32,000 nt of DNA, taken from Candidatus Thorarchaeota archaeon. GTDB taxonomy: Archaea; Asgardarchaeota; Thorarchaeia; Thorarchaeales; Thorarchaeaceae. Each line of letters starts with the position of its first letter. Position 1 is the first letter of the stretch. Both the position numbers and the translations under genes were made by a program. Of the stretch, positions 2,295 through 26,595 are shown in pieces. The stretch lies in NCBI GenBank assembly GCA_008080745.1, contig SHMX01000009.1, positions 1 to 32,000 of the forward strand, in the 5' to 3' direction. The notes beneath the pieces are model-generated. The model saw only the letters and a program-made list of their open reading frames with translations, searched no databases and was not told the DNA's origin.

Positions 2295-2460
2295 TACGCA
2301 TTTTTGCAAATTATGATAAATTTGCGATATGCAGATTCTCATGGAATCTGCAACACAGACGAGCGGGGGAAGGACAAAAGTTACTTACCTCTTCGTCCAC
2401 TGTTGAGCACCCTATTTTCATTTTGCATTGATTATTTGGTTGAGTGGATACTAGGTTTCA
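2295..2460 (+). repeat. 16S-trailer repeat copy 1 (lacks the rRNA part; hairpin 1 doubled)
   Basis: tacgcattttt-gcaaatt..aatttgc-gata-t-gcagattc..gaatctgc-aacacagacgagcgggggaaggac...cttcgtccactgttgagcaccc...ttggttgagtggatactaggtttc. Confidence 0.9.
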
Positions 2461-6420: not shown

Positions 6421-7188
6421 TTGATTGTGATGATGACAATTGCACCAAGGATGGTAGGAGATTATCCATTCAACACTGACGATGCCACTGCCTTAGTTTC
6501 ACTGCTGGATGGGAAAATTGGGGAGAATTTGAAACGGATGATGTTGGATTTCTATCCTGAAACTATTTCCCAATTATTTTCAGATCCTGAAAAATCCCGT
6601 TTGGAAGCTCTTGCAGGATATGCAAATCTTCAGAGAGCACTTCGACAGATTCAATTAGATGAATCAATTTTCTCAACTGTCCAAAACAAATATGGTTCTG
6701 TTATCTATGCGAATTTATCTTTTTCCTTGAAATCATTAGAAACTCTGATAACCCCTCTCCTGATGTCTGTTACTCAGCCCACCTCGATCGAATATGAGCT
6801 TTCTGATGAGCAATTAGATGAATTAACGGAGCAGTTGAGGTCATTTGTACTCAATTCTCAAGACTTTCCCGATGCTACTCGATTGAAGGAAACAGGAAAC
6901 CAGGACCTATTGTCCGAACTGGTAATGGCGTTCAATATTGGATTATTCATTGTCCTCGTCTTTCTGGTGATCAATTTAGCCAAATCCAAACATGAATTAT
7001 CTGACGTGCAGATATCCGAAATTGAAACTCTCCTTCGTGATTGGTCTCAAGAAGTCCTAGCTCAACTCACTCTCTTCGGACCTGTGAAACCTCAAGATGT
7101 ACACACTATTAGCTTGGTTGGAATTGATGCTGATGAAGAGGATGTAGAGCTTGCTGATTCATTCTCTGGATATGTAGATGAGGAGTAG
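6421..7188 (+). CDS. Hypothetical protein overlapping the mazF start; candidate non-canonical partner
   Basis: 255-aa ORF with a hydrophobic stretch and acidic tail; overlaps the mazF ORF by 11 nt. Confidence 0.65.
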   Translation: MIVMMTIAPRMVGDYPFNTDDATALVSLLDGKIGENLKRMMLDFYPETISQLFSDPEKSRLEALAGYANLQRALRQIQLDESIFSTVQNKYGSVIYANLSFSLKSLETLITPLLMSVTQPTSIEYELSDEQLDELTEQLRSFVLNSQDFPDATRLKETGNQDLLSELVMAFNIGLFIVLVFLVINLAKSKHELSDVQISEIETLLRDWSQEVLAQLTLFGPVKPQDVHTISLVGIDADEEDVELADSFSGYVDEE

Positions 7189-7787: not shown

Positions 7788-9158
7788 TTGCAAATAGAAG
7801 TATACTTTGCTCAACTACGTAAGAGAGTGGACTGGATAGGACCCAAGTGCCTTATTGCAATGATCGGTCTATCCTTGGTACTGCTAATTGCTACCGTTGA
7901 AACGTCTCTCATTGAGGAGCCATTTGATTTCTCCACAACCCTTTCAAGCATCGGTGTTGTAGCATCTGTCTTCACCTTCGGAATCCCCTTTTCAATTGGA
8001 GCTGTGGTGATGTGGACTACACCAAAAGCTCACCAATCCATGTTGCGCACAGAACCAACCTCCTCATACATAAGAAGAACCTATCTCTCTCGGTTGATTC
8101 TCTCAACAGGACTGTCTTTCTCTGTTCTCTTCATCGGTGCCCTCGTCGGATTTGTGATCTATGGTGGAGATTTCACCTATTTCCCCTCGGTTCTTGTAGC
8201 CTCTCTTCTGGTTGGCATGATGCTTACTCTCTTGGTCTTTTCCCTTGCTCTATACTTGGACTCGCCAAAGTACACTCTTGTGATATCCACCTTGTTGTTC
8301 CTGTTTCTATCCTTTGAATTTGGTTGGTCTCCTCGGTCTGCAGATGACATATTCTCTCTCTGTACTCCGTATCATCTTTTCAGATATCTTGCTGTAATCC
8401 TGTCTGGATACCAATTTCCTCATGAGCAGGCAATGGAGCACTACATGGGAGTATATGCTGACTTCACCGTTCTACTAGGTCCTCTTCTGCTGTGGAGCAT
8501 AGCATCTGTGTTCTCAATCCTCGGATCATTATATCTGTTGAAGGGGAATATGATGCAATGGAGGAAGGAGTCATCTACGTGGGATGATGGAGCCCTTGGT
8601 TCAATGGAATCTCAACCTTCAGGTATGGTCGTTCATACTCATAAAAGAATCAAGATCATGGCAATGTTGATCGTGATACTCTTTTCGGCAGCTACCATAT
8701 TCAATACAGTCCTAATTCCTGCTGGTAGACAGATTCCAGAGGAGTTCTATCTCTATCAGAGTCCGGAAACGGGGGAACCAATCACTCTTGGCTCATGGAT
8801 GTACGATTCAGTCTACATCTCAGACACCCTTCTCTCACAGACAGATGGTTTCACATTGATGGTCACTATTCTGGAATGGGGTGGATATAGTGGGGATGAT
8901 GGCCTCCAAGTCAAGTATGATATGGTTTCTCTCTCAGTATCACAATTCGAAGCGATGAACGAAACTGAACGTGAAGATGCTATTTATCCCACTTCTCGAG
9001 GTCTAACTCCCGATAGACCCGCAACAGGTCCTGGCGTGCAACATTCGATAGATGATGCTGGCACCTATCTATGGGCTTTTCGATTTACGGATACATCTAA
9101 CGAAACTGCTGCCTATACCATAGTAGTGTTCATTGAAATATACTTCAATCCTGTCTAA
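7788..9158 (+). CDS. Multi-pass membrane protein (ABC-2 permease-like) with C-terminal extracellular domain
   Basis: About 7 hydrophobic segments, a PYHLFR loop, and a soluble C-terminal ~140 aa. No ABC ATPase is adjacent. Confidence 0.55.
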   Translation: MQIEVYFAQLRKRVDWIGPKCLIAMIGLSLVLLIATVETSLIEEPFDFSTTLSSIGVVASVFTFGIPFSIGAVVMWTTPKAHQSMLRTEPTSSYIRRTYLSRLILSTGLSFSVLFIGALVGFVIYGGDFTYFPSVLVASLLVGMMLTLLVFSLALYLDSPKYTLVISTLLFLFLSFEFGWSPRSADDIFSLCTPYHLFRYLAVILSGYQFPHEQAMEHYMGVYADFTVLLGPLLLWSIASVFSILGSLYLLKGNMMQWRKESSTWDDGALGSMESQPSGMVVHTHKRIKIMAMLIVILFSAATIFNTVLIPAGRQIPEEFYLYQSPETGEPITLGSWMYDSVYISDTLLSQTDGFTLMVTILEWGGYSGDDGLQVKYDMVSLSVSQFEAMNETEREDAIYPTSRGLTPDRPATGPGVQHSIDDAGTYLWAFRFTDTSNETAAYTIVVFIEIYFNPV

Positions 9159-9288
9159 TCATCTGAATTAGTAATCGATAAATGCAGGAGTTTTCCCGTT
9201 ACTAATAATATTTATTAGATAGATAATAATATTCTGTTAGTGTGGTTGGAATTGAAATGTTTCGTAGATACGAGATGTTATTCTTATC

Positions 9289-9960
9289 ATGGGAAATGAG
9301 ATTATGAAATTAGGAAGAATACCTACTCGTGTAGGTGCTATGCTATTTGTAGTTCTTTTTGTGATATATGCTAATCCGACTCTAGTTGCAGCTACATTTG
9401 GTGGAAGTGACACTCCAAGTTATGATGTATCTTCTGGAAGTGGAGGAGAATATGATATTGTTCGTGCGAATTCTGCCAATGGTGTTTGTGAAATTCGTGT
9501 TAAAGAAAAGAGTTGGCCTGCATCCTACCCGGATGACTACGTAGGATATGCATACGTTGGTGTGGAATTTGTTCCTACCGAGGATATCGGTAACAACTGG
9601 AAGCTTATGGCCAGTTGGGATTTGGAATATGAACTGAAAGCAAATTGGTGGAGTTGCATTCGAATTGATGTGGTACATTCTGTTCGTGATGAGAATTACA
9701 ACAGACTCTGGCCTTCCCAATCCAAATATAGTGTTGAACTAGCATCAACTGGTATATTCTATGAATCTACAGGTGCTGATTACTCGGGTTCCACAACTGC
9801 ACAGTGGGGTATTGATTTGGATGAAGGCGAAACATACTATTTCTGCATAGAGTTGCTGATTACTGTAGTAAATGGTGGTGCAGTATTTGCTACTAGCTAC
9901 TATGATTCCGACGATCCTGTGTCTTTGACAGTTAATTCCATTTCGTGGAGCTATCTCTAG
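9289..9960 (+). CDS. Secreted hypothetical beta-rich protein
   Basis: Signal peptide (AMLFVVLFVIYANPTLVAA) followed by a Ser/Tyr/Trp-rich domain. Confidence 0.7.
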   Translation: MGNEIMKLGRIPTRVGAMLFVVLFVIYANPTLVAATFGGSDTPSYDVSSGSGGEYDIVRANSANGVCEIRVKEKSWPASYPDDYVGYAYVGVEFVPTEDIGNNWKLMASWDLEYELKANWWSCIRIDVVHSVRDENYNRLWPSQSKYSVELASTGIFYESTGADYSGSTTAQWGIDLDEGETYYFCIELLITVVNGGAVFATSYYDSDDPVSLTVNSISWSYL

Positions 9961-10047: not shown

Positions 10048-10268
10048 TATCTCTAACAAGGTATCCGTAGCGGAAGCTGCGGATGGATCATCTCCTACGC
10101 ATTTTTCGCAGATTTTACAAAATCTGCAATAACAGACGAGCGGGGAAGGACAAACAGTTACTTACCCCTTCGTCCACTGTTGAGCACCTTTTTCATTTTT
10201 GCAATGATTATCCTGTTGAGTGGCAACTAAGTTTCCAGACTCTGGAGATAGTCCCAGATGGCGATGAT
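10048..10268 (+). repeat. 16S-trailer repeat copy 3 (full length, with rRNA part and coding tail)
   Basis: tatctc-taacaaggtatccgtagcggaagctgcggatggatcatctcct-acgc...cctgttgagtggcaactaagtttccagactctgg. Confidence 0.95.
10054..10096 (+). rRNA. 16S rRNA 3'-terminal fragment (helix 45 + anti-SD), not a full gene
   Basis: Matches the universal SSU 3' end TAACAAGGTA-CCGTAG-GGAA-CTGCGG-TGGATCACCTCCT, with one C>T change in the anti-SD. Confidence 0.9.
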
Positions 10269-10439
10269 GGTTTTTTCTTTAATCGCAGGTGTTACTGAGA
10301 GTCTTATCGCACTTGGGTTGCAACGGGTCACGGACGGTTCCGCCAATGCAATGTCTGTGTTTCCACACAATCAACTCCAAGTTTATTAGATACCAACTAA
10401 ATCATCATCTGTACAGATTGTTCTATGAGGTCGATTCTC

Positions 10440-10808
10440 ATGCCTGAAGATGAAAAAAGAGAACTGGTACGATTCACATATCAATACAGCCCTGATTTTA
10501 GAGAAGAATATGTTACAGGGGCTCGTGGTGGCATCCAAAACATATACCACCTTAGACTTGATTTCTATAATGAACGATCCAAATTACGTTCTCTTGAGGA
10601 TTCACTTGTTGAAGATACTGATGGCTCACGAAGAATCGAACCCACGGAATCATCAAATGAGCCAGATATCATTGAGCGTACATTCAAAGTGGGATTGGTG
10701 TTATCCTTCAATGCTGTTCGTGAACTTTCTCGATTTCTCGCAGAAAAAGTGAAAGAGATAGATGAGATTGAGAGAAAACTCGCTAAGCAAATTACTGGTG
10801 GTGAATAA
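10440..10808 (+). CDS. Hypothetical protein, DUF3467-like
   Basis: YSPDFREEYVTGARGG...LRLDFYNER and VGLVLSFNAVRELSRFL resemble this small family. The stop is 4 nt before the next ATG. Confidence 0.55.
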   Translation: MPEDEKRELVRFTYQYSPDFREEYVTGARGGIQNIYHLRLDFYNERSKLRSLEDSLVEDTDGSRRIEPTESSNEPDIIERTFKVGLVLSFNAVRELSRFLAEKVKEIDEIERKLAKQITGGE

Positions 10809-10812
10809 AGAG

Positions 10813-11130
10813 ATGATTGATGATGAACACTATGCAAAGGGTCATTCAGATACGGGTACAACTAATCCTGATTGGTACAAGCTAGGTTCGATATCGGATA
10901 TGATATCTAGTTCCAGTATTACCCATATTCATATGGATTCAACTGCATCCACTTCAGCTGATAGTACTCGTTCTACTAAATCATCATCTATTGACAGTCT
11001 GATGAAACTGTTTGGAATATTGGATGAAGAAACTGCAGATGCTATTGAGGATGCCATTGAAGAGTATCGTAAACGTCATGACAAAGCAATGACTAGAAGA
11101 ATCCAGGAGCGATATCATGATCCTTCTTGA
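10813..11130 (+). CDS. VapB-like antitoxin with Ser/Thr-rich N-terminus
   Basis: The C-terminal SLMKLFGILDEETADAIEDAIEEYR resembles the toxin-binding helix of archaeal VapB. It overlaps the vapC start. Confidence 0.6.
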   Translation: MIDDEHYAKGHSDTGTTNPDWYKLGSISDMISSSSITHIHMDSTASTSADSTRSTKSSSIDSLMKLFGILDEETADAIEDAIEEYRKRHDKAMTRRIQERYHDPS

Positions 11131-11512
11131 TACTAGTTTCGTGATAGATCTCATGAGAGGAAATACTGATTGTATGAAGTTGCTTCAAGATACTGAAGCC
11201 AGAGAGGAGGATGTTTTTCTGTCTACCATATCTGTCTACGAATTACTCGTAGGTGTTGCTCATGCAGATAATAAAATAGATGAAGAGCAGAAAATACGGG
11301 AATCTCTATCAGCAATTACCACCATCGATTTCGATAAGTATTCATCCTACGAATCGGGTACCATCTATTCAGAACTGAAGTCGCAAGGTTCTATGATCAA
11401 CTCTTTTGATATTCTCATTGCTGGTATTGCACGAAGACATAACTATTCTGTCATGACTCGAAATGGATCTGATTTCAATCGAATAAATGGTCTTCAAGTT
11501 ATTGAATACTAG
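11117..11512 (+). CDS. vapC: VapC PIN-domain ribonuclease toxin
   Basis: MILLDTSFVID, ISVYELLVG, FDILIAGIA, VMTRNGSDFNRI: PIN acidic tetrad motifs. Confidence 0.93.
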   Translation: MILLDTSFVIDLMRGNTDCMKLLQDTEAREEDVFLSTISVYELLVGVAHADNKIDEEQKIRESLSAITTIDFDKYSSYESGTIYSELKSQGSMINSFDILIAGIARRHNYSVMTRNGSDFNRINGLQVIEY

Positions 11513-11541
11513 TTTCTGTTTTTCATTTCGTAATCATTGTT

Positions 11542-11732
11542 TATCTCTAACAAGGTATCCGTAGCGGAAGCTGCGGATGGATCACCTCCTACGCATTTTA
11601 TCGCGAATTCTCATGGAATTCGCAAAACAGACGAGCGGGGGAAGGACAAACAGTTACTTACCCCTTCGTTCACTGTTGAGCACCCTTTTCATTTTTGCAA
11701 TGATTATCCTGTTGAGTGGCAACTAGGTTTCA
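11542..11732 (+). repeat. 16S-trailer repeat copy 4 (full rRNA part)
   Basis: tatctc-taacaaggtatccgtagcggaagctgcggatggatcacctcct-acgcatttta...gttgagtggcaactaggtttc. Confidence 0.95.
11548..11590 (+). rRNA. 16S rRNA 3'-terminal 43-nt fragment (helix 45 + anti-SD), not a full gene
   Basis: TAACAAGGTATCCGTAGCGGAAGCTGCGGATGGATCACCTCCT; 10-bp stem TATCCGTAGC/GCTGCGGATG closing a GGAA loop. Confidence 0.93.
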
Positions 11733-11784
11733 CGTGTATCCTTATATCCGTCAAAATCTAACTACTCTTAGAGGTCTGATTCCC

Positions 11785-11982
11785 TTGGCTACAAAGACTA
11801 TCACCATTTCAGAAGAGGTCTATAACCTATTGGAGAAGATGCTCCTTCCGGGTGAGAAGATAGAGGATGCGATACTCCGCCTGTGTGGTATCAAGAGTAG
11901 TCTTCATGATTCTGATTTTGAAAAGGGTCTCGAAAAGATCATCACTGAAGATGCAGAGCTTCTCAAACGACTTGCAAAATAG
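11785..11982 (+). CDS. Antitoxin (DUF217/VapB-type N-terminus) paired with Doc
   Basis: TTG start; ATKTITISEEVYNLLEKM...KIEDAILRL; C-terminal FEKGLEKIITEDAELLKRLAK; 1-nt overlap with doc. Confidence 0.8.
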   Translation: MATKTITISEEVYNLLEKMLLPGEKIEDAILRLCGIKSSLHDSDFEKGLEKIITEDAELLKRLAK

Positions 11983-12383
11983 TGCGTGGTGCATACTTCG
12001 TGAGATATTTGACCTATGATGAGATCCTGTCTATCCATGACCGTTTGATAGAATTCTTTGGTGGCGAGAGTGGTGTTTTTTCGGTCAATGCATTGGAGAA
12101 CTGCGTATCCCTCCCTATGATGTCAGTATTTGGAACTGAGACCAATCCCACAATCTGGTCAAAAGCTGCAGCACTTCTTTATTGTATACTCATTCGTCAT
12201 CCCTTTGTTGATGGAAATAAGAGGACTGCTTGGACCGCTGCGAAGCTCTTTCTCTATCTCAATGGATATGACCTACAAGTTGACGTGGATGATGCCTAGG
12301 CAAAGATTCTCAGGATACTGAAGGAAGCGTCATCAAATGATTCGATTGCAGAATGGCTTGAACAGTGTTCTACGAAAATATAG
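11982..12383 (+). pseudogene. doc: Doc (Fic-family) toxin with premature in-frame TAG
   Basis: HPFVDGNKRTA Doc motif. TAG at 12297-12299 is followed in frame by AKILRILKEASSNDSIAEWLEQCSTKI*, the usual Doc C-terminal helices. Confidence 0.85.
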
Positions 12384-12398
12384 TTTCTTCATTGCTTT

Positions 12399-12539
12399 CT
12401 ATGCATTTTTCGCAAATTCCATGAGAATTTGCAAAACAGACGAGCGGGGGAAGGACAAAAGGTACTTGCCTCTTCGTCCACTGTTGAGCACCCTTTCTTC
12501 TTTTGCAATGATTGTCTGGTTGAGTGGATCATAGATTTC
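12399..12539 (+). repeat. 16S-trailer repeat copy 5 (no rRNA part)
   Basis: ctatgcatttttc-gcaaattc..gaatttgc-aaaacagacgagcgggggaaggac...ctggttgagtggatcatagatttc. Confidence 0.92.
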
Positions 12540-12803
12540 GCATTCTTATTGTGACCGTTCATTGTTTATTGGACAATCTTGGACATCAGAGCGTTGGCCT
12601 CCCAGGTAACGGCACTGGGTGAGACTCTGTCCTGGTCAGGGATACTATGTCTTTCAACCATATCTTTCCTCCGTATCAAGCTATATAAACCCCTATCGGA
12701 ATCGGTCCAGCAATATCCAAGTTTTAAGAAGATGTTCGCAACCCCTTACTTGTTGAAATTGTTGATTTTATATGTATATGTACTCATATGTATGGTGATC
12801 GAA

Positions 12804-13046
12804 ATGGCAAAGAACATCGCTTTGGCAGAAGATGTCTACAGAGACCTCAAACGTATGAAAAGAGAGGGTGAAAGTTTTAGCGACCTGATTCGAAGACTGT
12901 TGAAGACAAGAGGGGCGATTTCCGACCTTGCAGAATCTGCGACACTCAGTACTGAAGAATGGTTGGAGATGAAAAGACTGAAGGAAGAACAAGCGGCTCT
13001 TGATGAGAGCCGAACAGATATTCTTCTCTCAAAACAAGAAGGGTGA
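12804..13046 (+). CDS. vapB: VapB antitoxin (DUF217-type)
   Basis: MAKNIALAEDVYRDLKRMKREGESFSDLIRRLL; GGTGA SD-like motif at 12794. Confidence 0.88.
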   Translation: MAKNIALAEDVYRDLKRMKREGESFSDLIRRLLKTRGAISDLAESATLSTEEWLEMKRLKEEQAALDESRTDILLSKQEG

Positions 13047-13052
13047 TTTTTC

Positions 13053-13457
13053 GTGCCACTCTTTGATACGAGCTTTCTCATAGATCTCACTAGAGGTGAC
13101 GTTGGTGCTATATCCGCCGCAAAACAGGTCGATGGAACCGCTGACATTAAAGCGGTATCTGTGGTGACGGTCCACGAGTATTTACGAGGGGTCTATTATC
13201 ACCACATCGGGAAGAAAACGCTGGATGGTAAGCTCCGTAAAGCTCTCACAGATCTTGCGCATTTTGAACAACTGGAATTCACTCCCTCCATTGCACGAGA
13301 AGCTGCATATACCGATGCTCTGTTACTCAAGCATGGAACTACGATTCCCTATGCTGATGTTGTAATTGCAGCAACCGCAAAGCATCACAATATCCCTTTG
13401 GTCACACGTGATGCTCATTTCAGAGCTATTGATGATATTGTATTGATAGACTACTAG
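13053..13457 (+). CDS. vapC: VapC PIN-domain ribonuclease toxin
   Basis: LFDTSFLID, VTVHEYLRG, ADVVIAATA, LVTRDAHF. Confidence 0.92.
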   Translation: MPLFDTSFLIDLTRGDVGAISAAKQVDGTADIKAVSVVTVHEYLRGVYYHHIGKKTLDGKLRKALTDLAHFEQLEFTPSIAREAAYTDALLLKHGTTIPYADVVIAATAKHHNIPLVTRDAHFRAIDDIVLIDY

Positions 13458-13465
13458 ATGCCCTA

Positions 13466-13501
13466 GTATCCGTGGCGGAAGCTGCGGATGGATCACCTCC
13501 T
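13466..13501 (+). rRNA. 16S rRNA 3'-terminal fragment (helix 45 + anti-SD), not a full gene
   Basis: Same as copy 4 except one A>G change that converts an A-U pair to G-U. Confidence 0.9.
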
Positions 13502-13632
13502 ACGCATTTTGCAGATTCATGATAATCTGCAGTATAGACGAGCGGGGGAAGGACAAAAGTTACTTGCCTCTTCGTCCACTGTTGAGCACCCTTTCATTTT
13601 TGCAATGATTGTCTGAATGAGTGTGAACTAGA
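13466..13632 (+). repeat. 16S-trailer repeat copy 6 (rRNA part from helix 45)
   Basis: gtatccgtggcggaagctgcggatggatcacctcct-acgcatttt-gcagatt..aatctgc...ctgaatgagtgtgaactag. Confidence 0.95.
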
Positions 13633-13698
13633 CTCTTGTGTTTCTCTATTGATCTGGAATAGTATCATTTCTATTTCCGATTATTCCATGAATCCCGC

Positions 13699-13998
13699 TT
13701 AGTCCGATTGTTGACTTATATTTCTGTATTGCCATAGTAGGTCCACTACTAATCCCATAAGAATTGCTGAGTCAAAGAATATTGCATTTGGATTTACGAG
13801 CATGAAATGCCCTACCGTAAATACACACCATCCAATCATGCACATGAGAAGGAAATAGACTGTCCTTTTTTGCTGCTTAAGTTTTTCATCCTCTTCATAT
13901 TCGTTCACCAGTTTCCAGAGTGTACCTCTTCCAATGATACAGATGAAAAAAAGCAGTGTAAACGCGGTTCCGTGAATTGCTGCTACTAGTGTTTGCAT
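13699..13998 (-). CDS. Small membrane protein (3 TM)
   Basis: Three hydrophobic segments in 99 aa. Confidence 0.55.
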   Translation of the reverse strand: MQTLVAAIHGTAFTLLFFICIIGRGTLWKLVNEYEEDEKLKQQKRTVYFLLMCMIGWCVFTVGHFMLVNPNAIFFDSAILMGLVVDLLWQYRNISQQSD

Positions 13999-14184
13999 AT
14001 CTTTCTCTCCATATCTCCGAATATTCTCAGATTGGTGGACTCAACCAAACTCGATCATCATGATATCCACCATAAGGTGCTGCATCACATTGATGTTGGT
14101 AGTCATAGATTGCGGAAAACGGATATAACAGTCCCCATTCGTAGTCCATGACATCGAAATGAACGAATGATGTATCCCCATCCC

Positions 14185-14283
14185 TTCTATTGCACAGTCA
14201 ATTTGGTTGAGTATGAACTAGGTCTCCAGAGTTCGCAGGTAGTTTCAGGCGGTGATAGATTCGCCTCTTGAAAGAACAGTGAT
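14185..14283 (+). repeat. Right-end-only copy of the 16S-trailer repeat with coding tail
   Basis: ttctattgca...tttggttgagtatgaactaggtctccagagttcgcagg...gatagattc...gaaagaacagtgat aligns to 16020-16120. Confidence 0.7.
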
Positions 14284-14323
14284 TTTATAATCTCTCATAC
14301 ACATACATACACGAGTGAACAAT

Positions 14324-14566
14324 ATGGGGTACAAGACAATCTCACTCTCTGAGGAAGCCTATGCTATTTTGAAAAAAGCAAAACGCGAGAATGAGAGTTT
14401 TAGTCAAGTTGTTATCAGGCTCGCACAAAGACGAACATTGAGTGATTTCATAGGATGCATCTCAGAAGAATCAGTAAGTAAACTGACTTATGCACTAGCT
14501 GACTTCAGACAAGAACGGTCCAAGGTCTGGTCAAAAAGCATGGAAGAGTTGGTGAAGGACCAATGA
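14324..14566 (+). CDS. vapB: VapB antitoxin (DUF217-type)
   Basis: MGYKTISLSEEAYAILKKAKRENESFSQVVIRL; ATGA overlap with vapC. Confidence 0.9.
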   Translation: MGYKTISLSEEAYAILKKAKRENESFSQVVIRLAQRRTLSDFIGCISEESVSKLTYALADFRQERSKVWSKSMEELVKDQ

Positions 14567-14955
14567 TTGCGGACTCGAGTTTTGTTATTGATATTATGCG
14601 AAATGATGAATCGGCACTACAGAAACTTGAACTGATAAAAACGAGTCAGAGTCCTCAATATCTAACATCTCCAACAGTAATGGAACTTGCGGCAGGTATA
14701 TCTCTGGCAAGACTACCAAATAGAGAACAGAATCGAATCGATATTATCATGGAAGAATTCCAAATACTTCCCCTTGACACGGCATCTGCATGGTGGGCAG
14801 GTCTGGAGCTTGGCCGGTTGAAGAGAGAGGGGATGATTGTTGATCCAATCGATGCACAGATTGCTGGCATTGCAGTCAAACATCAGGAAATTGTTGTGAC
14901 CCGAAATATCCGACATTTTGAACGATTCAAAGACTTGAGTGTAGAGTCATACTAA
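14563..14955 (+). CDS. vapC: VapC PIN-domain ribonuclease toxin
   Basis: MIADSSFVID, TVMELAAG, IDAQIAGIA, VVTRNIRHFERF. Confidence 0.93.
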   Translation: MIADSSFVIDIMRNDESALQKLELIKTSQSPQYLTSPTVMELAAGISLARLPNREQNRIDIIMEEFQILPLDTASAWWAGLELGRLKREGMIVDPIDAQIAGIAVKHQEIVVTRNIRHFERFKDLSVESY

Positions 14956-14988
14956 TTCTGATTTCAGATTGAATTAGTCCTTTCAACT

Positions 14989-15108
14989 CGCAGATCTAGA
15001 AAATCTACAAAACAGATGAGCGAGGGAAGGTTGATGTTTCTATCCCTCACATCACTGTTGAACACTCTATTTTCATTTTTGTTATTATCTGACCGAGTGT
15101 AGCTTAGA
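14989..15108 (+). repeat. 16S-trailer repeat copy 7 (divergent)
   Basis: cgcagat..atctacaaaacagatgagcgagggaagg...tccctcacatcactgttgaacactctattttcattttt...gaccgagtg. Confidence 0.8.
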
Positions 15109-15176
15109 GTTTAGGTCTATCTCTAGATACTACATAAGAGTCATATACACTGTCATATATAGTATACATGATTACA

Positions 15177-15479
15177 ATGGCACATGTGTTGTCAGTTCGC
15201 TTGGATGAAGACTTGGAGAAACGTCTTGCATTCCTGATGGAGAAACGTAAGATAGTAGACAAGTCAGCCTATGTTCGTCGTTTGATTGATCGTTCACTTA
15301 GAGAAGACCTTCTTGACTTCCTCTCTGGGGAGATTGCTGCAAAACGTATTAGTATGTGGAAGGCTTCTTCAATAGCAGGAATCTCGTTGAGAGCAATGAT
15401 GATTGAGTTAGCAAAACGCGAAATCTCCATCTATGATGAACAATCACTGAAGGAAGATCTGCTCTTTGCAGAGGGATAA
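15177..15479 (+). CDS. RHH / UPF0175-like antitoxin
   Basis: VLSVRLDEDL RHH strand; ISMWKASSIAGISL...SLKEDL UPF0175-like C-terminus; adjacent to a DUF3368 PIN gene. Confidence 0.8.
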   Translation: MAHVLSVRLDEDLEKRLAFLMEKRKIVDKSAYVRRLIDRSLREDLLDFLSGEIAAKRISMWKASSIAGISLRAMMIELAKREISIYDEQSLKEDLLFAEG

Positions 15480-15482
15480 TTC

Positions 15483-15980
15483 ATGATAGGAGTTGTGAAT
15501 TCCTCACCTCTCATTTACTTGGGGAAGCTTGGTCTTGTTAATCTATTGAATGAACTCTTCGATGGCGTATTCACAACGCGTTCTGTGATGAATGAAGTGC
15601 TTGATGATACATCACCCGAGTTTGCTATTCTCACAGATGCCTTTGCATCATGGTTGAATCTGTCTGATGTCATAATATCTCCTCTCTCTACAAAACTCTG
15701 TGAAATGGGGTTACATCAAGGCGAAGTAGATGTAATCACTCTTGCATTCGATATGAGAGAGAAAGGGCCAGTTGTGATTATTGATGATCTTGCGGCACGG
15801 GATATTGGAAGAACTCTTGGATTGTATATAACTGGAACAATTGGAATCATATTGCGTGCTGTGAAAAACAATATGCTCTCCAAAACAGATGCTGTTGTCA
15901 AGCTAAACTATCTCGTACAAGAAACTCCGTTCCGTATCTCTACTAAACTGTACTTGCAAATCTTAGAACAGCTGAGATAA
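15483..15980 (+). CDS. DUF3368-type PIN-domain protein (putative toxin)
   Basis: VVNSSPLIYLGKLG, LHQGEVDVI, IIDDLAAR, ITGTIGIIL, FRIS. Confidence 0.88.
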   Translation: MIGVVNSSPLIYLGKLGLVNLLNELFDGVFTTRSVMNEVLDDTSPEFAILTDAFASWLNLSDVIISPLSTKLCEMGLHQGEVDVITLAFDMREKGPVVIIDDLAARDIGRTLGLYITGTIGIILRAVKNNMLSKTDAVVKLNYLVQETPFRISTKLYLQILEQLR

Positions 15981-15985
15981 TCATG

Positions 15986-16122
15986 CTTCCCCTCGCGTTC
16001 ACTATTGAGCACCCTATTTTTATTTTTGCAATAGTTACTCGGTTGAGTGTTCACTAGGTTTCTAGACTCTGCAGGAAGTCCCAAATGGAAATAGATTCTC
16101 CTCCGGAAAGAACAGTGATCTC
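15986..16122 (+). repeat. 16S-trailer repeat copy 8 (right half plus coding tail)
   Basis: cttcccctcgcgttcactattgagcaccctatttttatttttgcaa...cggttgagtgttcactaggtttctagactctgcagg. Confidence 0.85.
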
Positions 16123-16159
16123 ATTTTCGCTTATACACCTACATACATGAGTGAACAAT

Positions 16160-16270
16160 ATGGGAAACAATATAATCTCACTCTCTGAGGAGGCCTATGC
16201 ACTTCTGCTCCATCCTCAATGGTGTTACTCATGCTCGCGAGGAGTCGGAAATTTCTGGTATTGGAAATGA
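16160..16270 (+). pseudogene. Truncated vapB antitoxin remnant
   Basis: MGNNIISLSEEAYALL matches MGYKTISLSEEAYAIL (14324), upstream region included, then loses homology. Confidence 0.75.
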
Positions 16271-16408
16271 GTCTTTCACTCCAATCATCTGTAGGTCTAT
16301 CTCTCTGAGCGAATTATCGTAGCGGTTCAACCTCAAAAACACGAAACGCGAAACATAGAAATGTGTTTACTCATATTATTTTTCGAATCTGCTTGGGATG
16401 GAGATACC

Positions 16409-19400
16409 ATGGCCCGAAACGCCACCGAAAGGATAGAAGCACGCCAACTAAGAAATTATGAACGTGATGCAATCAGATTAATTCTTTATTCAATTGTAAT
16501 ATGCATTGCTATTCTCCCGTTGATGTCTGGAGATGTACAACAAGTTAGTTTACCTGTGCACGAGCCTGTTAATAACGTCAGTTTATCAGATAATGATCTT
16601 CTGTTGACCATTAGATTGACACATAGCCCTGATTGCATAGCACCCGGTGTTGTGGATAGTTATAGAGGGTTTGCATATGCCGATCAATATGCTGATGTGG
16701 TTCGATTTATAGATCCTATTAATGATGTAACTCTTAATCAAACTATAGAATCTGGAACTGTAGAAGAAACGATTCTTACGGGTGCCGATATTGATAATGA
16801 TGGTAGTACTGAGTTTCTACTAGTTAATGATAATGGCACAGTCAACAATTTACTGGTAGTTGATTTCAATGATGCAACTACAACCATATACAATACCTCT
16901 ATTGAATATCCCACGGATATTGCAACGGGATATTTCAACGATGATACGTTTCTTGATGTTGCTATCTTTGATATATACGGTGTTGAAACACTGGACATTC
17001 ACTCGGACCAGCGTCTTGGAATTTTCATGCATTCGGGTTTTGATACTGATTGCTATTCTATCGGGCGTTTCATTGACCCAACAGAGGACTCTATTGCCTT
17101 GGGCATATACGATGCTGCAAAAAATGGAAATTTCACTATTATTGCTGGTAATGGTACTATTCTGAGAACCACTATGATGCATGTCCCCATAATGGGTATG
17201 GCGAATTTTGATTACGGGCCTGGACTTGATGACCTTGCAATCATGATGTTTGATGGGAATCTTACTACATTATCTCCTTCGACCATGACAGTATTATACA
17301 ACATCACAGGACTTCCTGAAAGGAGCTTGGTGACAACTGGGGTTTTGAATTTTGATGGTCAGACTGACTTGTTAGTTGCTCCTATGCAAGATAATTATAC
17401 TGTGTTCATTGATGGTGCAAATGGAGATATAATTCGGTATTCAGTCAAAATAGCTGGTGTCTTTGAAGGAGCTATTGCCGGAGATCCCCCCTCACCGCTT
17501 ATCGATGGTGGGTTCATTGATGACGATAATCTTACAGATTTTGCTATCCTTGAAGGTACAGCGCGCAGTGCGGCATTTCTCAGAGGGTCCGATGGAAACA
17601 TCGGTTATGAAGAACCAAGTATCTCCAGTAAGCCGACAAACATTAGAGTCTTCGATATCAACAATAACACCCGAGATGATATCCTCGTTCTGGAAGGGAG
17701 CAATGTCTATGTGATGTTCAGTGATGTGACAGCTCCGATACTATATCCAGAAACACTCTCACCGCCTCACCCCACTATTCGAGACCCCTATATCGAAATC
17801 GAGGTGGGTATTGATGATGATACTTCTATCATTCTTGCTGACATTTATTTGCGATTTGAAGACGGGAATTGGTCTCAACCTGTTGATGAGCTTCAAAATG
17901 CAGGAACACAGTATTTTGCATTCTTAGTCGGATTACCCGAAGGTTACTATGAGTACTATCTTGTCTTTCAAGATACTTACTTGAATATCGGAACACTTGG
18001 GAATGAGACTCACCCTGTGAATTTCACTATAGCTGGTAATCTTGCTTGGACTGATACAAAGTATCAATCTACCGCTCTAGGTCATCAGCTGATGGATATA
18101 GGTAACACCTCCACTGGCGAGGAGGTTATCTATACGTTGGATTCGAGCAGTGATGTCATCTATTTGGATCGTTACACGCCTAGGGGTGAAAAACAATCAT
18201 TAGGTGTCGTTGCAAATAGAACTTTCAGCGATTTTTGGATTTACACGGGAATGATGGATGGGGATCATCTTCTAGACCCAATTATTCTACTTTATAATGC
18301 AACCGCTGAGATAGTAAACGTGACTATCTATCACGGAAATACTGGCACACTTTGGTATTCAACTCAGTATCCGTATAATCACATGAGAGATGTCCAATCT
18401 GCTCAAGCTTATGATTGTGATAGAGATGGCATAGATGAGTTCTTCTTTGTATTCGAGAACTCAAGCAATAGCCATGATGTATATCTTGCTCGTTTGAAAG
18501 CAGATGGTTTTTGGTCCAATGTATCTGTCACCGGTGGTAGCTCTGAAACTCATTCACTAAGCTTAGCATATACTTTGAATGATAACACAGCAGAAGCGGC
18601 TTTATCCTCGTCGGGAACAGGTCATGTTGATATCTTCAATGCATCCAGTATGACACTAATCTCAACCCACAATGTGACCCGTATAGAATTCGACATCACA
18701 ATACCAATCTATCTTAGAAATTATCATAATGCGTCAGAATCGCGAACCAAGTTTCTATTGTACATGTACTTCATGGACCCCTCCGGAATAAGTTATGGGT
18801 TCCATGTATTCGATGGTTCCACACCTAGGATTAATGAAACTGTCTTTTTCGAAGGTCACAACGAGCTCTATCTTGATTTGAATATTGTTGACTTGGAGGG
18901 TGATGGAACAGACGAACTGGTGGGTGTCAGCTATATTACTGGAGATATCGCACTTCTAAGGTTAGACACTCCGATTACTGTAGAGTGGTCTGTGCCATTA
19001 AGCACTGCGGATTTCTTGAGTTCTGTTATTGTCGATTTTGATGGTGATGGGCAAGATGAGATTGGAGTCTTTACTAAACAGGATACAATACTGTGGATTG
19101 TCTCTTTGAATGGGAAAATAGAACGTGAATTGAATGTTGGAGAAGGTCATGGTTGTAAGAAATTAAGCAATATCGATCTTGGATATGGTGAAGAGATTGT
19201 ATCTTATCCGCTTGTCCAGGATGGTGTGACAAAGATTGGTGTGATTCGTGATATCGTACTTATCAGACGTCTGAATGCTTCACTCACTTATTCTACAGAA
19301 GAGCTACTTCAAAGTGAATCATTGGACATCTACGTGGATGTAAGCAATATCTATTCGGAAGAAATCCCGGATGCAGAGGTATTTTTCACAGTACACTACA

Positions 19401-21910
19401 AATCAGGAGGTTCCATTATCACTCAAACGAGCTCTCTGATTTATGACATATCCAATTATTCTACAACATTGGCAGCAACGTGGCCAATTGGTGTTGTGAA
19501 TTTCAGTCTGACCATCAGTCATGATCTATATGATGTCTACGAGGAGTATTATCCCAATACTTTGGTTGTGAAGAGTGACCTGAGTGTTGAGGTCTATACA
19601 AAGAGTCTCTTGATGCAAAATCAGACCTTGACCGCAGATGTGGCTGTCACAGATAGTCTTGGTACACGAGTTTCCGATGCTTCCGTCGATATTGAGTTGG
19701 ATGGCACTCATTATGCAGTTGCCTATTCCGTCAATCTATATCGTCTATTAATTCCAAATATAGGTCTCAAACCTGGAGAATATACGATAAATGCATCCGC
19801 GAGTCATGAATATTCCGACACTGTTTCCTACGCTACAATATCATTCAGTTTGGTGGCTAATGAGATTAATATCTCCCGATTTATGCCTAATGGCCTTGAA
19901 CAAAACAATGAGTTTGTAGGCTGGTTGAATCTCACAGATATCTTTGATCATCCGATTGAGAACGCACAGGTGACAATTGTTGGTGCGGGTTTGGAACTCT
20001 TTCTGTCTGAATTAGAACCTGGATGTTATTATCTTAATTCAACTGCTGCAATGGGGCTAGGTAATCATACCTTTGAGATTCAAGTAGTACATGACTATAT
20101 TCAGGGCTCAACCTTTGGGGACTTCTATGTTGCAACCGTTGGCTCTATCACCCCCAATGTACCCGATATTTCTGCTGTTTCTGGTGGAGATCTATTCAAT
20201 GTGACAGTGTTCATCTCAGATGAGTACGGAACAACCCCTGATGATACATGGGTATGTGTTGAGATTGATGGTACGAACTATACCGCGTCAAAGATTTCTG
20301 GAAACTCGTTTAGAGTACAATTGAATGCGACCTATTCGATTGGAAAGCGAGAACTCACAATATATTATCGGTCCGCTTTCATTCATGATGGCAAGATATA
20401 CACTGATCTCAATGTTCATTCAAATCCAATTCTATCCCTTTCACCATCAAGTTATTGGACTGTTAGCCAATCTGATACGACCTTGATTGAGGTTGCTGTC
20501 AAAGACTGGTTGGGAGTATCTATCGGGGATGCATCTGTGAGTCTTAGAATCAGAGGTGTCCCCTATACCCTGACTCATGTAGTTAATGGGCTCTATAGCA
20601 CAAATATCTCAACGGTTGGATGGCCATATGGATCACATCCTTACCAACTTACAGTAGAACACGAGTATCTCTACATATTTTCGATAAGTGGAGAACTCTC
20701 AGTCATTGCAGAACCCACCATCACCATCATCCCGTCAACTGAGGTGCCTGAACAATTTACCCATCTCACTGTTACGGTTGAAGTTACAGATATCTATGAG
20801 AATCCCATCACAAATCTTGAGGTTGTGGTAGAGTTTGCTGGTATGAGATCAATTGCAGAAGAAAGTAATCTACCTGGGACATACTTTACAATCTTCGATG
20901 TTGGAAACACCTATTTTGGTACATACAACATCTCTGTACAAGTGAATGGGACACTCGCGAGTTCTGGACGCATGAGCAAATCCATTTTTGTTGAAGTTTC
21001 TACACCTGATAATGAATCTCTCAGTGCCGAAACGGTGTCTGTTGCTGGAGGATTATCACTATTACTCAGCTTGATTGGTATGATTTTATTTGTGAAGGTT
21101 TCCTCGTCTGTGTCGACAACTCCTAGAAAAAAGGATGATATTACAAAAAGCATCAGACAGATTGATAGGATTTATCTAGTCATCGTAGCAATATCTGGAT
21201 TACTATTCCTTCATTCTTGGTCACTTTTCTCAGCAGGGGAGGTTGCACTAGCTTTACTAGAGAGCATCCTTTTACTTGGATCTTCAGTCTTACTTTATGG
21301 TATTTGGCTCTACAGGGATGCTTATTCATCAATCCTGTTACAAGGTCGACTAAGTAAAAGAAGAATAGCTCTAGGTATCTGGCATCTAACTCTCGTTCCC
21401 TTTATTGTGTTACTCATATTTTACTATGGTCCGAGCTTTCAGTTCTTTGACAGGTATGTTATGAGTGTGGAATGGATAACTGTAGGTGGTTTCAGCTTTC
21501 CACCAATACTGGCGACAATCCTTGCAACATATATGAGCAGTATCGTGGTAGTGGTTATCAGCTTCTATCGTGAGATACGAAAGGGATTGAAGAGGATAGA
21601 TGATATGATTGTGTCGGGTACACCAAAGAATGTGGTTGACGAGGAACAGGTACTTCTCATAGGTCGTACGGGTGCTTCAATCAGAATCAAGTTCCTGATG
21701 TTCTTACTAATTCTGGGTGCAACAACAGTAGTCCAGCTAGACTTCATCCTGAAGAACTACTCAATGGCGGCAATTGTGCTGGTACCCATTCTATTCCTAG
21801 TATTGATTCCATTCATATCTTCAAGACTAGTAAGAGGGCTTCCAAAGATGATGAAACGACTAAGAGGGCGCTCCTCTAGAGAAGATCTTGAAATACCACT
21901 GGTTGAGTAG
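16409..21910 (+). CDS. Large surface protein: FG-GAP/VCBS-like propeller repeats, Ig-like stalk, C-terminal multi-TM domain
   Basis: N-terminal TM; DIDNDGSTEFLL, DCDRDGIDEFF, DLEGDGTDEL and DFDGDGQDEIGV Ca-loop repeats; repeated VxVxDxxGxxIxDAxV Ig-like modules with NxT sequons; about 6 C-terminal TM helices. The ORF track starts at 16361. Confidence 0.8.
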   Translation: MARNATERIEARQLRNYERDAIRLILYSIVICIAILPLMSGDVQQVSLPVHEPVNNVSLSDNDLLLTIRLTHSPDCIAPGVVDSYRGFAYADQYADVVRFIDPINDVTLNQTIESGTVEETILTGADIDNDGSTEFLLVNDNGTVNNLLVVDFNDATTTIYNTSIEYPTDIATGYFNDDTFLDVAIFDIYGVETLDIHSDQRLGIFMHSGFDTDCYSIGRFIDPTEDSIALGIYDAAKNGNFTIIAGNGTILRTTMMHVPIMGMANFDYGPGLDDLAIMMFDGNLTTLSPSTMTVLYNITGLPERSLVTTGVLNFDGQTDLLVAPMQDNYTVFIDGANGDIIRYSVKIAGVFEGAIAGDPPSPLIDGGFIDDDNLTDFAILEGTARSAAFLRGSDGNIGYEEPSISSKPTNIRVFDINNNTRDDILVLEGSNVYVMFSDVTAPILYPETLSPPHPTIRDPYIEIEVGIDDDTSIILADIYLRFEDGNWSQPVDELQNAGTQYFAFLVGLPEGYYEYYLVFQDTYLNIGTLGNETHPVNFTIAGNLAWTDTKYQSTALGHQLMDIGNTSTGEEVIYTLDSSSDVIYLDRYTPRGEKQSLGVVANRTFSDFWIYTGMMDGDHLLDPIILLYNATAEIVNVTIYHGNTGTLWYSTQYPYNHMRDVQSAQAYDCDRDGIDEFFFVFENSSNSHDVYLARLKADGFWSNVSVTGGSSETHSLSLAYTLNDNTAEAALSSSGTGHVDIFNASSMTLISTHNVTRIEFDITIPIYLRNYHNASESRTKFLLYMYFMDPSGISYGFHVFDGSTPRINETVFFEGHNELYLDLNIVDLEGDGTDELVGVSYITGDIALLRLDTPITVEWSVPLSTADFLSSVIVDFDGDGQDEIGVFTKQDTILWIVSLNGKIERELNVGEGHGCKKLSNIDLGYGEEIVSYPLVQDGVTKIGVIRDIVLIRRLNASLTYSTEELLQSESLDIYVDVSNIYSEEIPDAEVFFTVHYKSGGSIITQTSSLIYDISNYSTTLAATWPIGVVNFSLTISHDLYDVYEEYYPNTLVVKSDLSVEVYTKSLLMQNQTLTADVAVTDSLGTRVSDASVDIELDGTHYAVAYSVNLYRLLIPNIGLKPGEYTINASASHEYSDTVSYATISFSLVANEINISRFMPNGLEQNNEFVGWLNLTDIFDHPIENAQVTIVGAGLELFLSELEPGCYYLNSTAAMGLGNHTFEIQVVHDYIQGSTFGDFYVATVGSITPNVPDISAVSGGDLFNVTVFISDEYGTTPDDTWVCVEIDGTNYTASKISGNSFRVQLNATYSIGKRELTIYYRSAFIHDGKIYTDLNVHSNPILSLSPSSYWTVSQSDTTLIEVAVKDWLGVSIGDASVSLRIRGVPYTLTHVVNGLYSTNISTVGWPYGSHPYQLTVEHEYLYIFSISGELSVIAEPTITIIPSTEVPEQFTHLTVTVEVTDIYENPITNLEVVVEFAGMRSIAEESNLPGTYFTIFDVGNTYFGTYNISVQVNGTLASSGRMSKSIFVEVSTPDNESLSAETVSVAGGLSLLLSLIGMILFVKVSSSVSTTPRKKDDITKSIRQIDRIYLVIVAISGLLFLHSWSLFSAGEVALALLESILLLGSSVLLYGIWLYRDAYSSILLQGRLSKRRIALGIWHLTLVPFIVLLIFYYGPSFQFFDRYVMSVEWITVGGFSFPPILATILATYMSSIVVVVISFYREIRKGLKRIDDMIVSGTPKNVVDEEQVLLIGRTGASIRIKFLMFLLILGATTVVQLDFILKNYSMAAIVLVPILFLVLIPFISSRLVRGLPKMMKRLRGRSSREDLEIPLVE

Positions 21911-26208: not shown

Positions 26209-26595
26209 TCATCTTTGCCCATTGGAGGTATAATCAGAGATATACTCGATGATGGGTATGACTTTTCCATTCTCAAGTTTTGGATAAACATCAACAGCAT
26301 ATCCCTTTGAGTCGTCATATACAATTAATGATGGAATCTCTTTGGCAAATTTGATCGCTCGTTGCTGAGCAGTACCATAAATTCTGCGAATTGCTGTCTT
26401 ATTCATGATTGCAACTTTCATTACGGTTTCGTAGGCTTCAGAGAGTTTGTCTTCAGGCCATCCTTTTGTATCAAAAATATCGATGCGGATGATTTTAGCC
26501 ATCTCTTTTAGTTTTTCAATTGCGTCTTGGATTCCTTTATTGATTGGATTTTCGGCAGGATCGATTGTTGAATCATAATAGAACTTCAAATACAT
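26209..26595 (-). CDS. Hypothetical protein (possible thioredoxin-like fold)
   Basis: 128-aa ORF; IPSLIVYD...VYP. Confidence 0.55.
   Translation of the reverse strand: MYLKFYYDSTIDPAENPINKGIQDAIEKLKEMAKIIRIDIFDTKGWPEDKLSEAYETVMKVAIMNKTAIRRIYGTAQQRAIKFAKEIPSLIVYDDSKGYAVDVYPKLENGKVIPIIEYISDYTSNGQR

Follow-up and report, generated by a model that had tools for sequence, protein, structure and literature searches.

Gene tails beside copies of the 16S rRNA trailer in a thorarchaeal cassette array are probably dead 3' ends of a thioredoxin-like-fold gene

Introduction

Tandem islands at tRNA and tmRNA genes consist of several units that all point the same way, next to a target gene that remains intact; their direct repeats duplicate the 3' end of this stable-RNA gene together with the flank downstream of it. 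The same is true of the array analyzed here, which lies in a 32,000-nt stretch of a Candidatus Thorarchaeota genome (contig SHMX01000009.1, positions 1 to 32,000; hereafter the window). It differs from such islands in its target, which is the 16S rRNA gene's 3' end and trailer, and in its units, which are tiny (0.8-2.5 kb), consist mostly of toxin-antitoxin (TA) pairs and contain no integrase, none being detected by Pfam elsewhere in the genome either. Moreover, the repeats extend into the next gene and their ends differ from unit to unit.

Among the organisms with reported chromosomal integrons and CALINs are Asgard archaea (Ghaly et al. 2022, PMC9668308). As in these, the cassettes are small, co-oriented and TA-rich, each is followed by a structured repeat of ~130-230 nt, and cassette order is shuffled between sister species. 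The repeat, however, is an rRNA trailer and not an attC site, with its inverted partner 2.5 kb away in the 16S leader, and IntI is missing (no PF00589 match in the genome). In an attC, inverted core sites (R''/L'' and L'/R') pair within the repeat and crossover takes place at G|TT. Based on inspection only, GTTGAGC/GTTGAGT occurs in the repeats, the complement of this core is in the 16S leader rather than in the repeat, and the cassettes do not end at the GTT core.

A third comparison is HeimM2 of Ca. Heimdallarchaeum, described in parts of the report of Wu et al. (2022, PMC8813620) as a mobile element located exactly downstream of the single 16S gene. The insertion site, directly downstream of an Asgard archaeon's single 16S gene, is thus shared. 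In contrast to the array, HeimM2 is described there as a single element with a homing-endonuclease-like gene, and those parts of the report mention no arrays, trailer duplications or relics of neighboring genes.

Here we analyze the short minus-strand reading frames that abut the right ends of the repeats. We consider it likely, with a probability of roughly 0.8, that these tails are dead 3' ends of a 126-aa gene with a thioredoxin-like fold that stood tail-to-tail with the 16S trailer, and that the repeats are copies of the chromosome downstream of 16S.

Results

The window holds an array of co-oriented cassettes, mostly toxin-antitoxin, separated by structured repeats. The repeat is the 3' end of 16S followed by the trailer, which is the 3' strand of the 16S processing stem. 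As expected of an archaeal 16S trailer, it lies directly 3' of 16S (the end of contig C2, which holds the true 16S gene, equals copy 4 over 77 nt, the length of the assembler's k-mer overlap) and is complementary to the 5' leader. Against the leader (C2:589760-589840), the trailer copies form 44-50 intermolecular pairs with a dG of -59 to -65 kcal/mol (z about -6 to -7). No Rfam family matched the window, whether at the gathering threshold or at E<=1, the 16S fragments being shorter than the model can recognize. The copies relevant to the tails, and one adjoining cassette, are as follows.

10054..10226, plus strand: repeat copy 3, composed of a 43-nt piece from the 3' terminus of 16S in which the anti-SD is mutated (ATCTCCT), a small hairpin, the processing stem's 3' strand and a terminator rich in T
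11548..11722, plus strand: repeat copy 4, of which 11548-11624 matches the terminal 77 nt of contig C2 without a difference
14186..14217, plus strand: repeat copy 7, the last ~30 nt of the trailer only
14315..14955, plus strand: VapB/PIN cassette, whose 5' flank holds the copy 7 relic
15985..16053, plus strand: repeat copy 8, the 3' half of the trailer only, beginning inside the stem

Repeat boundaries vary on both sides, and the stop codon of the tail is fused to the end of the trailer in every copy. The tails themselves, which the preliminary description had placed in three copies and, as ET* alone (CTAGGTTTC; asterisk, stop), in two more, are all present.

10227..10301, minus strand: copy 3 relic of the 3' end of the parent gene; 10227-10268 reads IIAIWDYLQSLET*, and the last 13-15 codons align at the DNA level to the gene of a sister species
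16054..16122, minus strand: copy 8 relic, reading EITVLSGGESISIWDFLQSLET*, of which the last ~15 codons (GGESISIWDFLQSLET*) are gene-derived
14218..14283, minus strand: copy 7 relic, reading ITVLSRGESITA*NYLRTLET* and decayed (W->stop, D->N, Q->R, S->T)
2451..2459, minus strand: ET* only, a minimal relic, adjoining copy 1 on the right
11723..11731, minus strand: ET* only, likewise a minimal relic, adjoining copy 4 on the right

Other stubs of 2-3 codons like ET* occur at about 12531-12539, 13628-13635 and 15103-15112. The tails exceed what chance would give: scanning all six frames of the 3.16-Mb genome places the motif W[DEN][FYW]L..LE.* in copies 3 and 8 and nowhere else. The seven upstream codons of the copy 8 relic belong to a junction that is common to copy 7 and leads into the 5' region of a VapB cassette (plus strand). 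This junction recurs in the sister species and, truncated, at 16123-16207; one truncation junction is common to copy 7, copy 8 and a sister-species relic, EGDVTIWDYLQSLVT*, to which copy 7 is orthologous by synteny.

The derivation of the tails from a real gene, with its stop directly against the repeat, was supported by the only other genome of the genus, that of the sister species (G001). There, a full-length ORF of 126 aa (P0001) is convergent to a repeat copy and touches it; it ends in ...ITIWDYLQSLET*, with the CTAG at the close of the repeat copy as its stop. The parent gene had been described as absent from the window, and its orthologue is indeed missing both there and in the whole assembled genome, although a 37%-identical paralogue is present at 26212-26595.

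26209..26595, minus strand: intact paralogue P0002, 128 aa, 37% identical to the sister-species parent, with no trailer adjoining

The intact parent gene is also absent from Logan contigs of two runs of one study (probably the source sample), which contain only an alternative continuation past 10368.

The predicted fold of P0001, built from a 75-sequence alignment, is thioredoxin-like (pLDDT 94.9, versus a poor 58 from an earlier 2-sequence alignment). It shares with the thioredoxin-fold superfamily the predicted core (beta-alpha-beta-alpha-beta-beta-alpha) and a conserved proline at the cis-Pro position, and differs from it in an extra long helix and in the lack of any cysteine. P0001 and P0002 have no CxxC or CxxS active site, which a redox-active thioredoxin or glutaredoxin would carry. 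Structural matches reach a TM of 0.45-0.47 with Trx/Grx clusters and of 0.7-0.78 with unnamed ones, the 0.78 being archaeal; Foldseek against the PDB gave nothing at E<=0.001, the best hits being of AhpC/thioredoxin type (E about 0.03). The family comprises 227 representative clusters at E<=0.001, with profile coverage of positions 1-127. P0001 is thus a member of an unnamed thioredoxin-fold family, based on the full-length profile match and the shared fold. Searches of Pfam and NCBIfam assigned it to no Pfam family (only sub-threshold PF20575 matches) and gave no recombinase match, a word-index homologue search retrieved only P0001 itself, and a scan of metagenome contigs found no relatives.

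Within the family, I117 and L121 of the C-terminal helix are nearly invariant. The copy 3 relic aligns to positions 102-124 of the profile over 23 codons and is its best non-self match among 1543 six-frame fragments (23 residues). The stop-to-stop frame of copy 3 is 47 codons long (10230-10370); both family prolines are in register across it, as expected if the whole frame were gene-derived, but the profile alignment covers only the 23 codons, and a variant contig upstream of the relic lacks the family RRIFGS motif.

One of the origins proposed in the preliminary description was that the parent is the native neighbor of 16S. We infer that it is, or was, such a neighbor in this genus. This is plausible here, where both assemblies (G000, the present genome, and G001) break at the 16S 3' end and neither joins a complete 16S to the parent gene, and it is shown by analogy in another genus (g12). 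In G012, a genome of that genus, a contiguous 16S gene is followed by the trailer, a convergent 345-aa gene and then six partial copies of this segment, each with its own relic of 2-120 codons. These relics demonstrably stem from the gene directly adjoining the contiguous 16S. In a further genome (G003), the gene convergent to 16S encodes an unrelated 221-aa protein.

The parent might instead be an inverted cargo gene that came to lie beside a trailer copy by chance, its end being carried along when neighboring cassettes were copied. The family is patchy (6 of the 86 family genomes), and one member is located in a restriction-modification island between an HTH gene and a C5-methylase/EcoRII module. 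In addition, the sister-species parent comes after a MazF cassette and not after a full 16S, the adjoining copy retaining only ~10 nt of 16S, and a search of the present genome for an orthologue of the LRR gene flanking that parent gave generic LRR matches only, leaving the ancestral locus unplaced. The relics of G012 point the other way, as does the fusion of the stop to the trailer end in all copies, which is expected of an original flank. We regard the cargo origin as unlikely.

As had been described, four synonymous codons and one Y/F replacement separate copy 3 from copy 8 within the final 10 sense codons. Five of the six base changes are at third positions, and so few replacements are improbable if the observed base changes are placed at random (P about 9e-4). 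Based on the same 10 codons, the sister-species parent differs from copy 3 by 6 synonymous and 0 non-synonymous changes (1, 1 and 5 changes at the three codon positions) and from copy 8 by 6 and 1 (1, 2 and 6), with P<5e-5 in both comparisons. Between copy 8 and the sister-species relic the ratio is 4:2 (P about 0.002). Copy 7, with an in-frame stop and 5-6 replacements, looks neutral, and the relics of G012 show no synonymous bias and are decaying. A comparison of copies 7 and 8 for higher divergence in the relic than in its flanks gave 69% versus 83% and 77%, on numbers too small to support a separate history of the relic.

The tails had been described as under purifying selection. This holds for the parent gene but not for the relics: given the stop and decay of copy 7, selection acted on live gene copies. 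Were selection to maintain the relics, which might serve recombination onto the live gene as a reservoir of C-terminal ends or be small translated frames, the synonymous excess between copies 3 and 8 of one genome would be explained, as would that between copy 8 and the sister-species relic, which have a truncation junction in common. Such maintenance is improbable, however, in view of copy 7 and of the decay in G012. The relic frames, moreover, have no start codons (46-47 codons stop-to-stop), and the codon sets are genome-specific, as copying from a live allele would leave them. The codons CAG-AGT-GAA are common to both relics of the present genome, and CAA-TCT is common to the gene and the relic of the sister species, which suggests that the functional allele of each lineage was the source of that lineage's relics, by copying or by conversion. 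The mostly synonymous differences of copy 8 despite its shared junction count against our preferred reading, that of dead gene ends, and would require gene conversion from a live allele. Also counting against this reading are the missing synonymous bias in G012 and one cassette whose boundaries differ between the two genomes.

Two further explanations are very improbable. The conservation could reflect a plus-strand function, as promoter or operator of the downstream antitoxin or as part of the trailer RNA, with the minus-strand frame accidental: in copies 7 and 8 the tail is just upstream of a VapB TATA-like box and a repeat, D4, spans the tail into vapB, but the changes cluster at third positions of the minus-strand frame and include a Ser TCT/AGT switch, and the same 13 codons end the full-length sister-species gene and match the C-terminal helix of the family.

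The other, also raised in the preliminary description, derives the tail from an SSV-type integrase belonging to the element, whose gene would be cut at att on integration and lose this end. Direct repeats that partially copy the target RNA gene are indeed typical of islands made by integrases. A tyrosine recombinase, though, has a catalytic R..HxxR..Y domain and about 300 or more aa, and the full-length parent is a small, cysteine-free thioredoxin-fold protein without recombinase motifs, which likewise removes support for the suggestion that it would identify the mobilizing enzyme. PF00589 and PF16795 have no match in the 98%-complete genome (controls positive), which has only two serine-recombinase fragments, far from the array, and the variable boundaries on both sides of the repeat are contrary to this reading.

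Discussion

Under the reading of the tails as dead gene ends, the repeated unit would take in 0-43 nt of terminal 16S sequence, the ~175-nt trailer and 2 to ~23 codons of the parent gene, counted from its stop. Every cassette would carry its own cut of this stretch, making tail length a cassette-specific mark. Consistent with such marks, the VapB/Doc, VapB/PIN(6) and 456/223-aa cassettes have equal repeat boundaries in the two genomes while their order is different; those of the 127-aa/VapB/PIN cassette differ. The synonymous-only differences would have arisen while the sequence sat in live genes, and the relics would not be maintained. We read the sequences bounding the cassettes as duplications of the 16S 3' flank, derived from the target. 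Such duplications may form by recombination between the chromosomal flank and cassette DNA that has captured a copy of it, in a Campbell-type event that is probably homologous. TA cassettes may persist by resisting their loss.

As a tentative generalization, which may well not hold, the 3' flank of the single 16S gene in Thor-type Asgard archaea could be an integron-like cassette platform that works without an integrase. Small circles with a captured segment of 16S end, trailer and neighbor tail would enter, leave and swap by recombination with the chromosomal trailer. TA cassettes would accumulate there, and the tails would be capture fingerprints refreshed by gene conversion from the live neighbor.

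The tails reveal the origin of the repeats, namely the region downstream of the host's own 16S, and not a foreign att site or attC. As copies of that region, they rule out the integrase reading. The copying of the trailer also accounts for the break of Asgard MAG assemblies right after the 16S gene, where the k-mer overlap exactly ends. With the array, the gain of cassettes at an rRNA gene in the absence of a dedicated recombinase becomes testable, and relics of the neighboring gene beside trailer copies are a marker for such arrays in other genomes.

Array layout and relic tails

The assembly (G000; 3.16 Mb in 19 contigs, the window being the first 32 kb of contig C9) contains nine copies, some full and some partial, of a repeat unit of up to ~230 nt between ~2.3 and 16.2 kb of the window, all on the plus strand. 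These copies divide small, mostly co-oriented gene sets (cassettes), and some carry a minus-strand peptide relic at their right end.

Cassettes and relics of the window array
255-aa gene (6421-7188) and MazF
456-aa and 223-aa genes, 7788-9960
127-aa gene, VapB and PIN
VapB and Fic/Doc
VapB and PIN, two such sets
UPF0175 and DUF3368 PIN-like gene
Truncated vapB start
10227-10301, minus strand, relic of copy 3
14218-14283, minus strand, relic of copy 7
16054-16122, minus strand, relic of copy 8

No Pfam or NCBIfam match was found for the 456-aa, 223-aa and 255-aa proteins. The immediate right boundary of the array is a 1849-aa ORF (16361-21910), conserved at the corresponding place in G001, the genus's one other genome, with 77% DNA identity. 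Between copy 5 and the vapB that comes after it, ~100 nt (12540-12660) closely match the starts of contigs C10 and C11, and related sequence ends contigs C1 and C11. This stretch is a dispersed repeat that breaks the assembly, possibly an IS or MITE end; the orthologous cassette flank in G001 lacks it.

On re-reading the sequence, all three peptides lie where the preliminary description placed them and read as it gave them. Its statement that only a stub (CTAGGTTTC, reading ET and a stop) is left in copies 1 and 4 was also reproduced, as was its count of four synonymous codons and one Y/F replacement between copies 3 and 8 across the final ten sense codons.

The parent gene of the tail

The repeat is present in six genomes besides G000, from five further genera of the family (40 related genomes searched). 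After one of the G001 copies comes an intact ORF of 126 codons, read from the opposite strand and ending ...DGTVITIWDYLQSLET; its TAG stop lies within the CTAG closing the repeat. The tail thus came from a real gene with its stop abutting the repeat, as had been proposed. The parent had also been reported missing from the window. A six-frame scan of the whole G000 genome found the C-terminal motif at two places only, the relics of copies 3 and 8, where the open frames measure 46 and 47 codons from stop to stop, so the G000 assembly contains no full-length parent.

Over the last ten codons, the G001 gene differs from copy 3 by six synonymous codons (including a Ser TCT/AGT switch) and no replacements, with 1, 1 and 5 base changes by codon position, and from copy 8 by six synonymous codons and one replacement, with 1, 2 and 6. 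With base changes placed at random, neither pattern was reached (0/20,000 trials each, P < 5e-5). Copy 7 is interrupted by an in-frame stop, carries 5-6 replacements and fits neutral change (P 0.4-0.98); by synteny its orthologue is the second relic in G001, EGDVTIWDYLQSLVT and a stop. The codons CAG-AGT-GAA are common to the two well-kept G000 relics and CAA-TCT to the G001 gene and G001 relic, and copy 7 retains the G001-like type. The synonymous divergence would have arisen in live, lineage-specific alleles, of which the relics may be copies or conversion products; such an origin has to be assumed since a single truncation junction into the vapB 5' region is common to copies 7 and 8 and the G001 relic. 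In every relic, DNA homology with the G001 gene fades beyond roughly 40-45 nt; the family profile can be aligned to 23 residues in copy 3 and to 15 in copy 8.

The G001 protein is named hypothetical at NCBI. An exhaustive profile search retrieved 227 representative clusters (E<=0.001), most of 120-135 residues and matching end to end. None of 75 members reached the Pfam cut-off, and a few had sub-threshold matches to PF20575. The fold predicted from a 75-sequence alignment is confident (pLDDT 94.9, pTM 0.88). Unnamed archaeal and bacterial clusters have a similar fold (TM 0.7-0.78), and thioredoxin/glutaredoxin models a less similar one (TM 0.45-0.47); the best PDB matches are AhpC and thioredoxins (E about 0.03), and the protein has no cysteine. 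Because the tail is the last helix of the family, with the I117 and L121 columns nearly invariant, it is a native part of the gene and was not taken from the repeat. The family is patchy (6/86 genomes of the taxonomic family). An intact paralogue (37% identity) lies at 26212-26595 of the window with no repeat beside it, and one distant member adjoins a C5 methylase and an EcoRII-type nuclease.

The element's own integrase had been offered as a source of the tail. This was rejected, since neither the parent nor any array ORF has a recombinase match, and PF00589 and PF16795 have none anywhere in the 98%-complete G000 genome, with control genomes positive. Two serine-recombinase fragments occur elsewhere in G000.

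The repeat as 16S rRNA 3' end and trailer

The single 16S gene of G000 lies at the extreme end of contig C2, and window 11548-11624 matches the final 77 nt of that contig without a difference. An overlap of exactly this length, 77 nt, is also shared by contigs C9 and C16. The figure is therefore the assembler's k, and in the assembly graph the 16S end connects to a copy-4-type trailer (the ~175-nt stretch 3' of 16S). The repeat core CACTGTTGAGCA is complementary to TGCTCAACAGTG, 160 nt upstream of 16S, and two further blocks also pair. On co-folding, each copy forms 44-50 intermolecular pairs (dG -59 to -65 versus about -38 kcal/mol for shuffles). From the 77-nt identity and the leader pairing, the repeat is the 16S 3' end plus trailer, made up of the processing stem's 3' strand and, after it, a run rich in T.

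The rRNA pieces within the repeats are drifting: in copy 3 the 16S fragment (10054-10096) has its anti-Shine-Dalgarno altered to ATCTCCT, and helix 45 of copy 6 shows an A replaced by G. The 16S gene itself (C2:589938-592348) spans 2411 nt against a 1478-position model, and the ~930 nt of insertions are probably intron(s). In G001 (C92:1-300), a non-rRNA ORF precedes a 160-nt 16S 3' fragment starting from AATACGTCCC; the fragment is either one more copy of the array type, with more of 16S in it, or the junction of an intron.

Cassettes as units

G001 contig C111 is syntenic with the window from 32000 to 14206 (72-79% identity), and the right array end is therefore ancestral to the genus. Three cassettes (VapB/Doc, VapB/PIN(6) and 456/223-aa) have the same repeat boundaries on both sides in G000 and G001; their order is A-B-C in G000 and C-B-A-C on G001 contig C81, and their preceding neighbours differ. 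The boundaries of the 127-aa/VapB/PIN cassette are not kept. In each of two public runs of one study, one Logan contig follows the window to 10368 and then continues with other sequence, coinciding with the cassette edge from synteny (10373, where G001 cassette homology starts), which suggests cassette presence/absence variation in the population at 10368/10369.

G001 has the order MazF, trailer, intact gene; G000 has MazF, trailer, 456/223 cassette, 43-nt 16S fragment, full trailer, relic. A circle carrying the 43 nt of 16S, trailer and cargo, crossing over with the chromosomal trailer, would give the G000 arrangement as expected, and we infer that recombination of cassette circles with the trailer is the best mechanism. 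Insertion by an unknown site-specific enzyme is possible, as is homology-anchored illegitimate recombination using the conserved 16S.

The same pattern in another genus

G012, from another genus, has an unbroken stretch of 16S (258-1487), trailer and, convergent to them, an intact 345-aa gene (1628-2665). Beyond it, six more partial copies of trailer plus gene 3' end are spread over 31 kb in one orientation, each a different sub-interval, with relics of 2 to about 120 codons; these show no synonymous bias. Several are followed by VapB-type cassettes, one homologous to the window cassette at 14315. Because the G012 relics come from that genome's own 16S-adjacent gene, the tail always derives from whichever gene flanks 16S in a given lineage. 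Between trailer copies (C2:1-36000) lie VapBC pairs and also large cargo, namely two ~900-aa FtsX-like permeases with an ABC ATPase, and metabolic genes, so cargo is not limited to TA modules.

Relation to known systems

Three known systems come closest. Tandem islands at tRNA genes share the logic of the array but have integrases and fixed repeat ends, unlike it. Integrons and CALINs, whose enrichment in Asgard MAGs has been reported (PMC9668308), look similar in their cassettes but depend on IntI and on attC sites that pair with themselves; neither of these was found in the array. The third is the HeimM2 element, which sits immediately downstream of 16S in Ca. Heimdallarchaeum (PMC8813620). 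A limited literature search found no published description of neighbour-gene relics in trailer repeats. The main value of the tail is that it proves the repeats to be target-derived duplications, copied from the 16S 3' flank.
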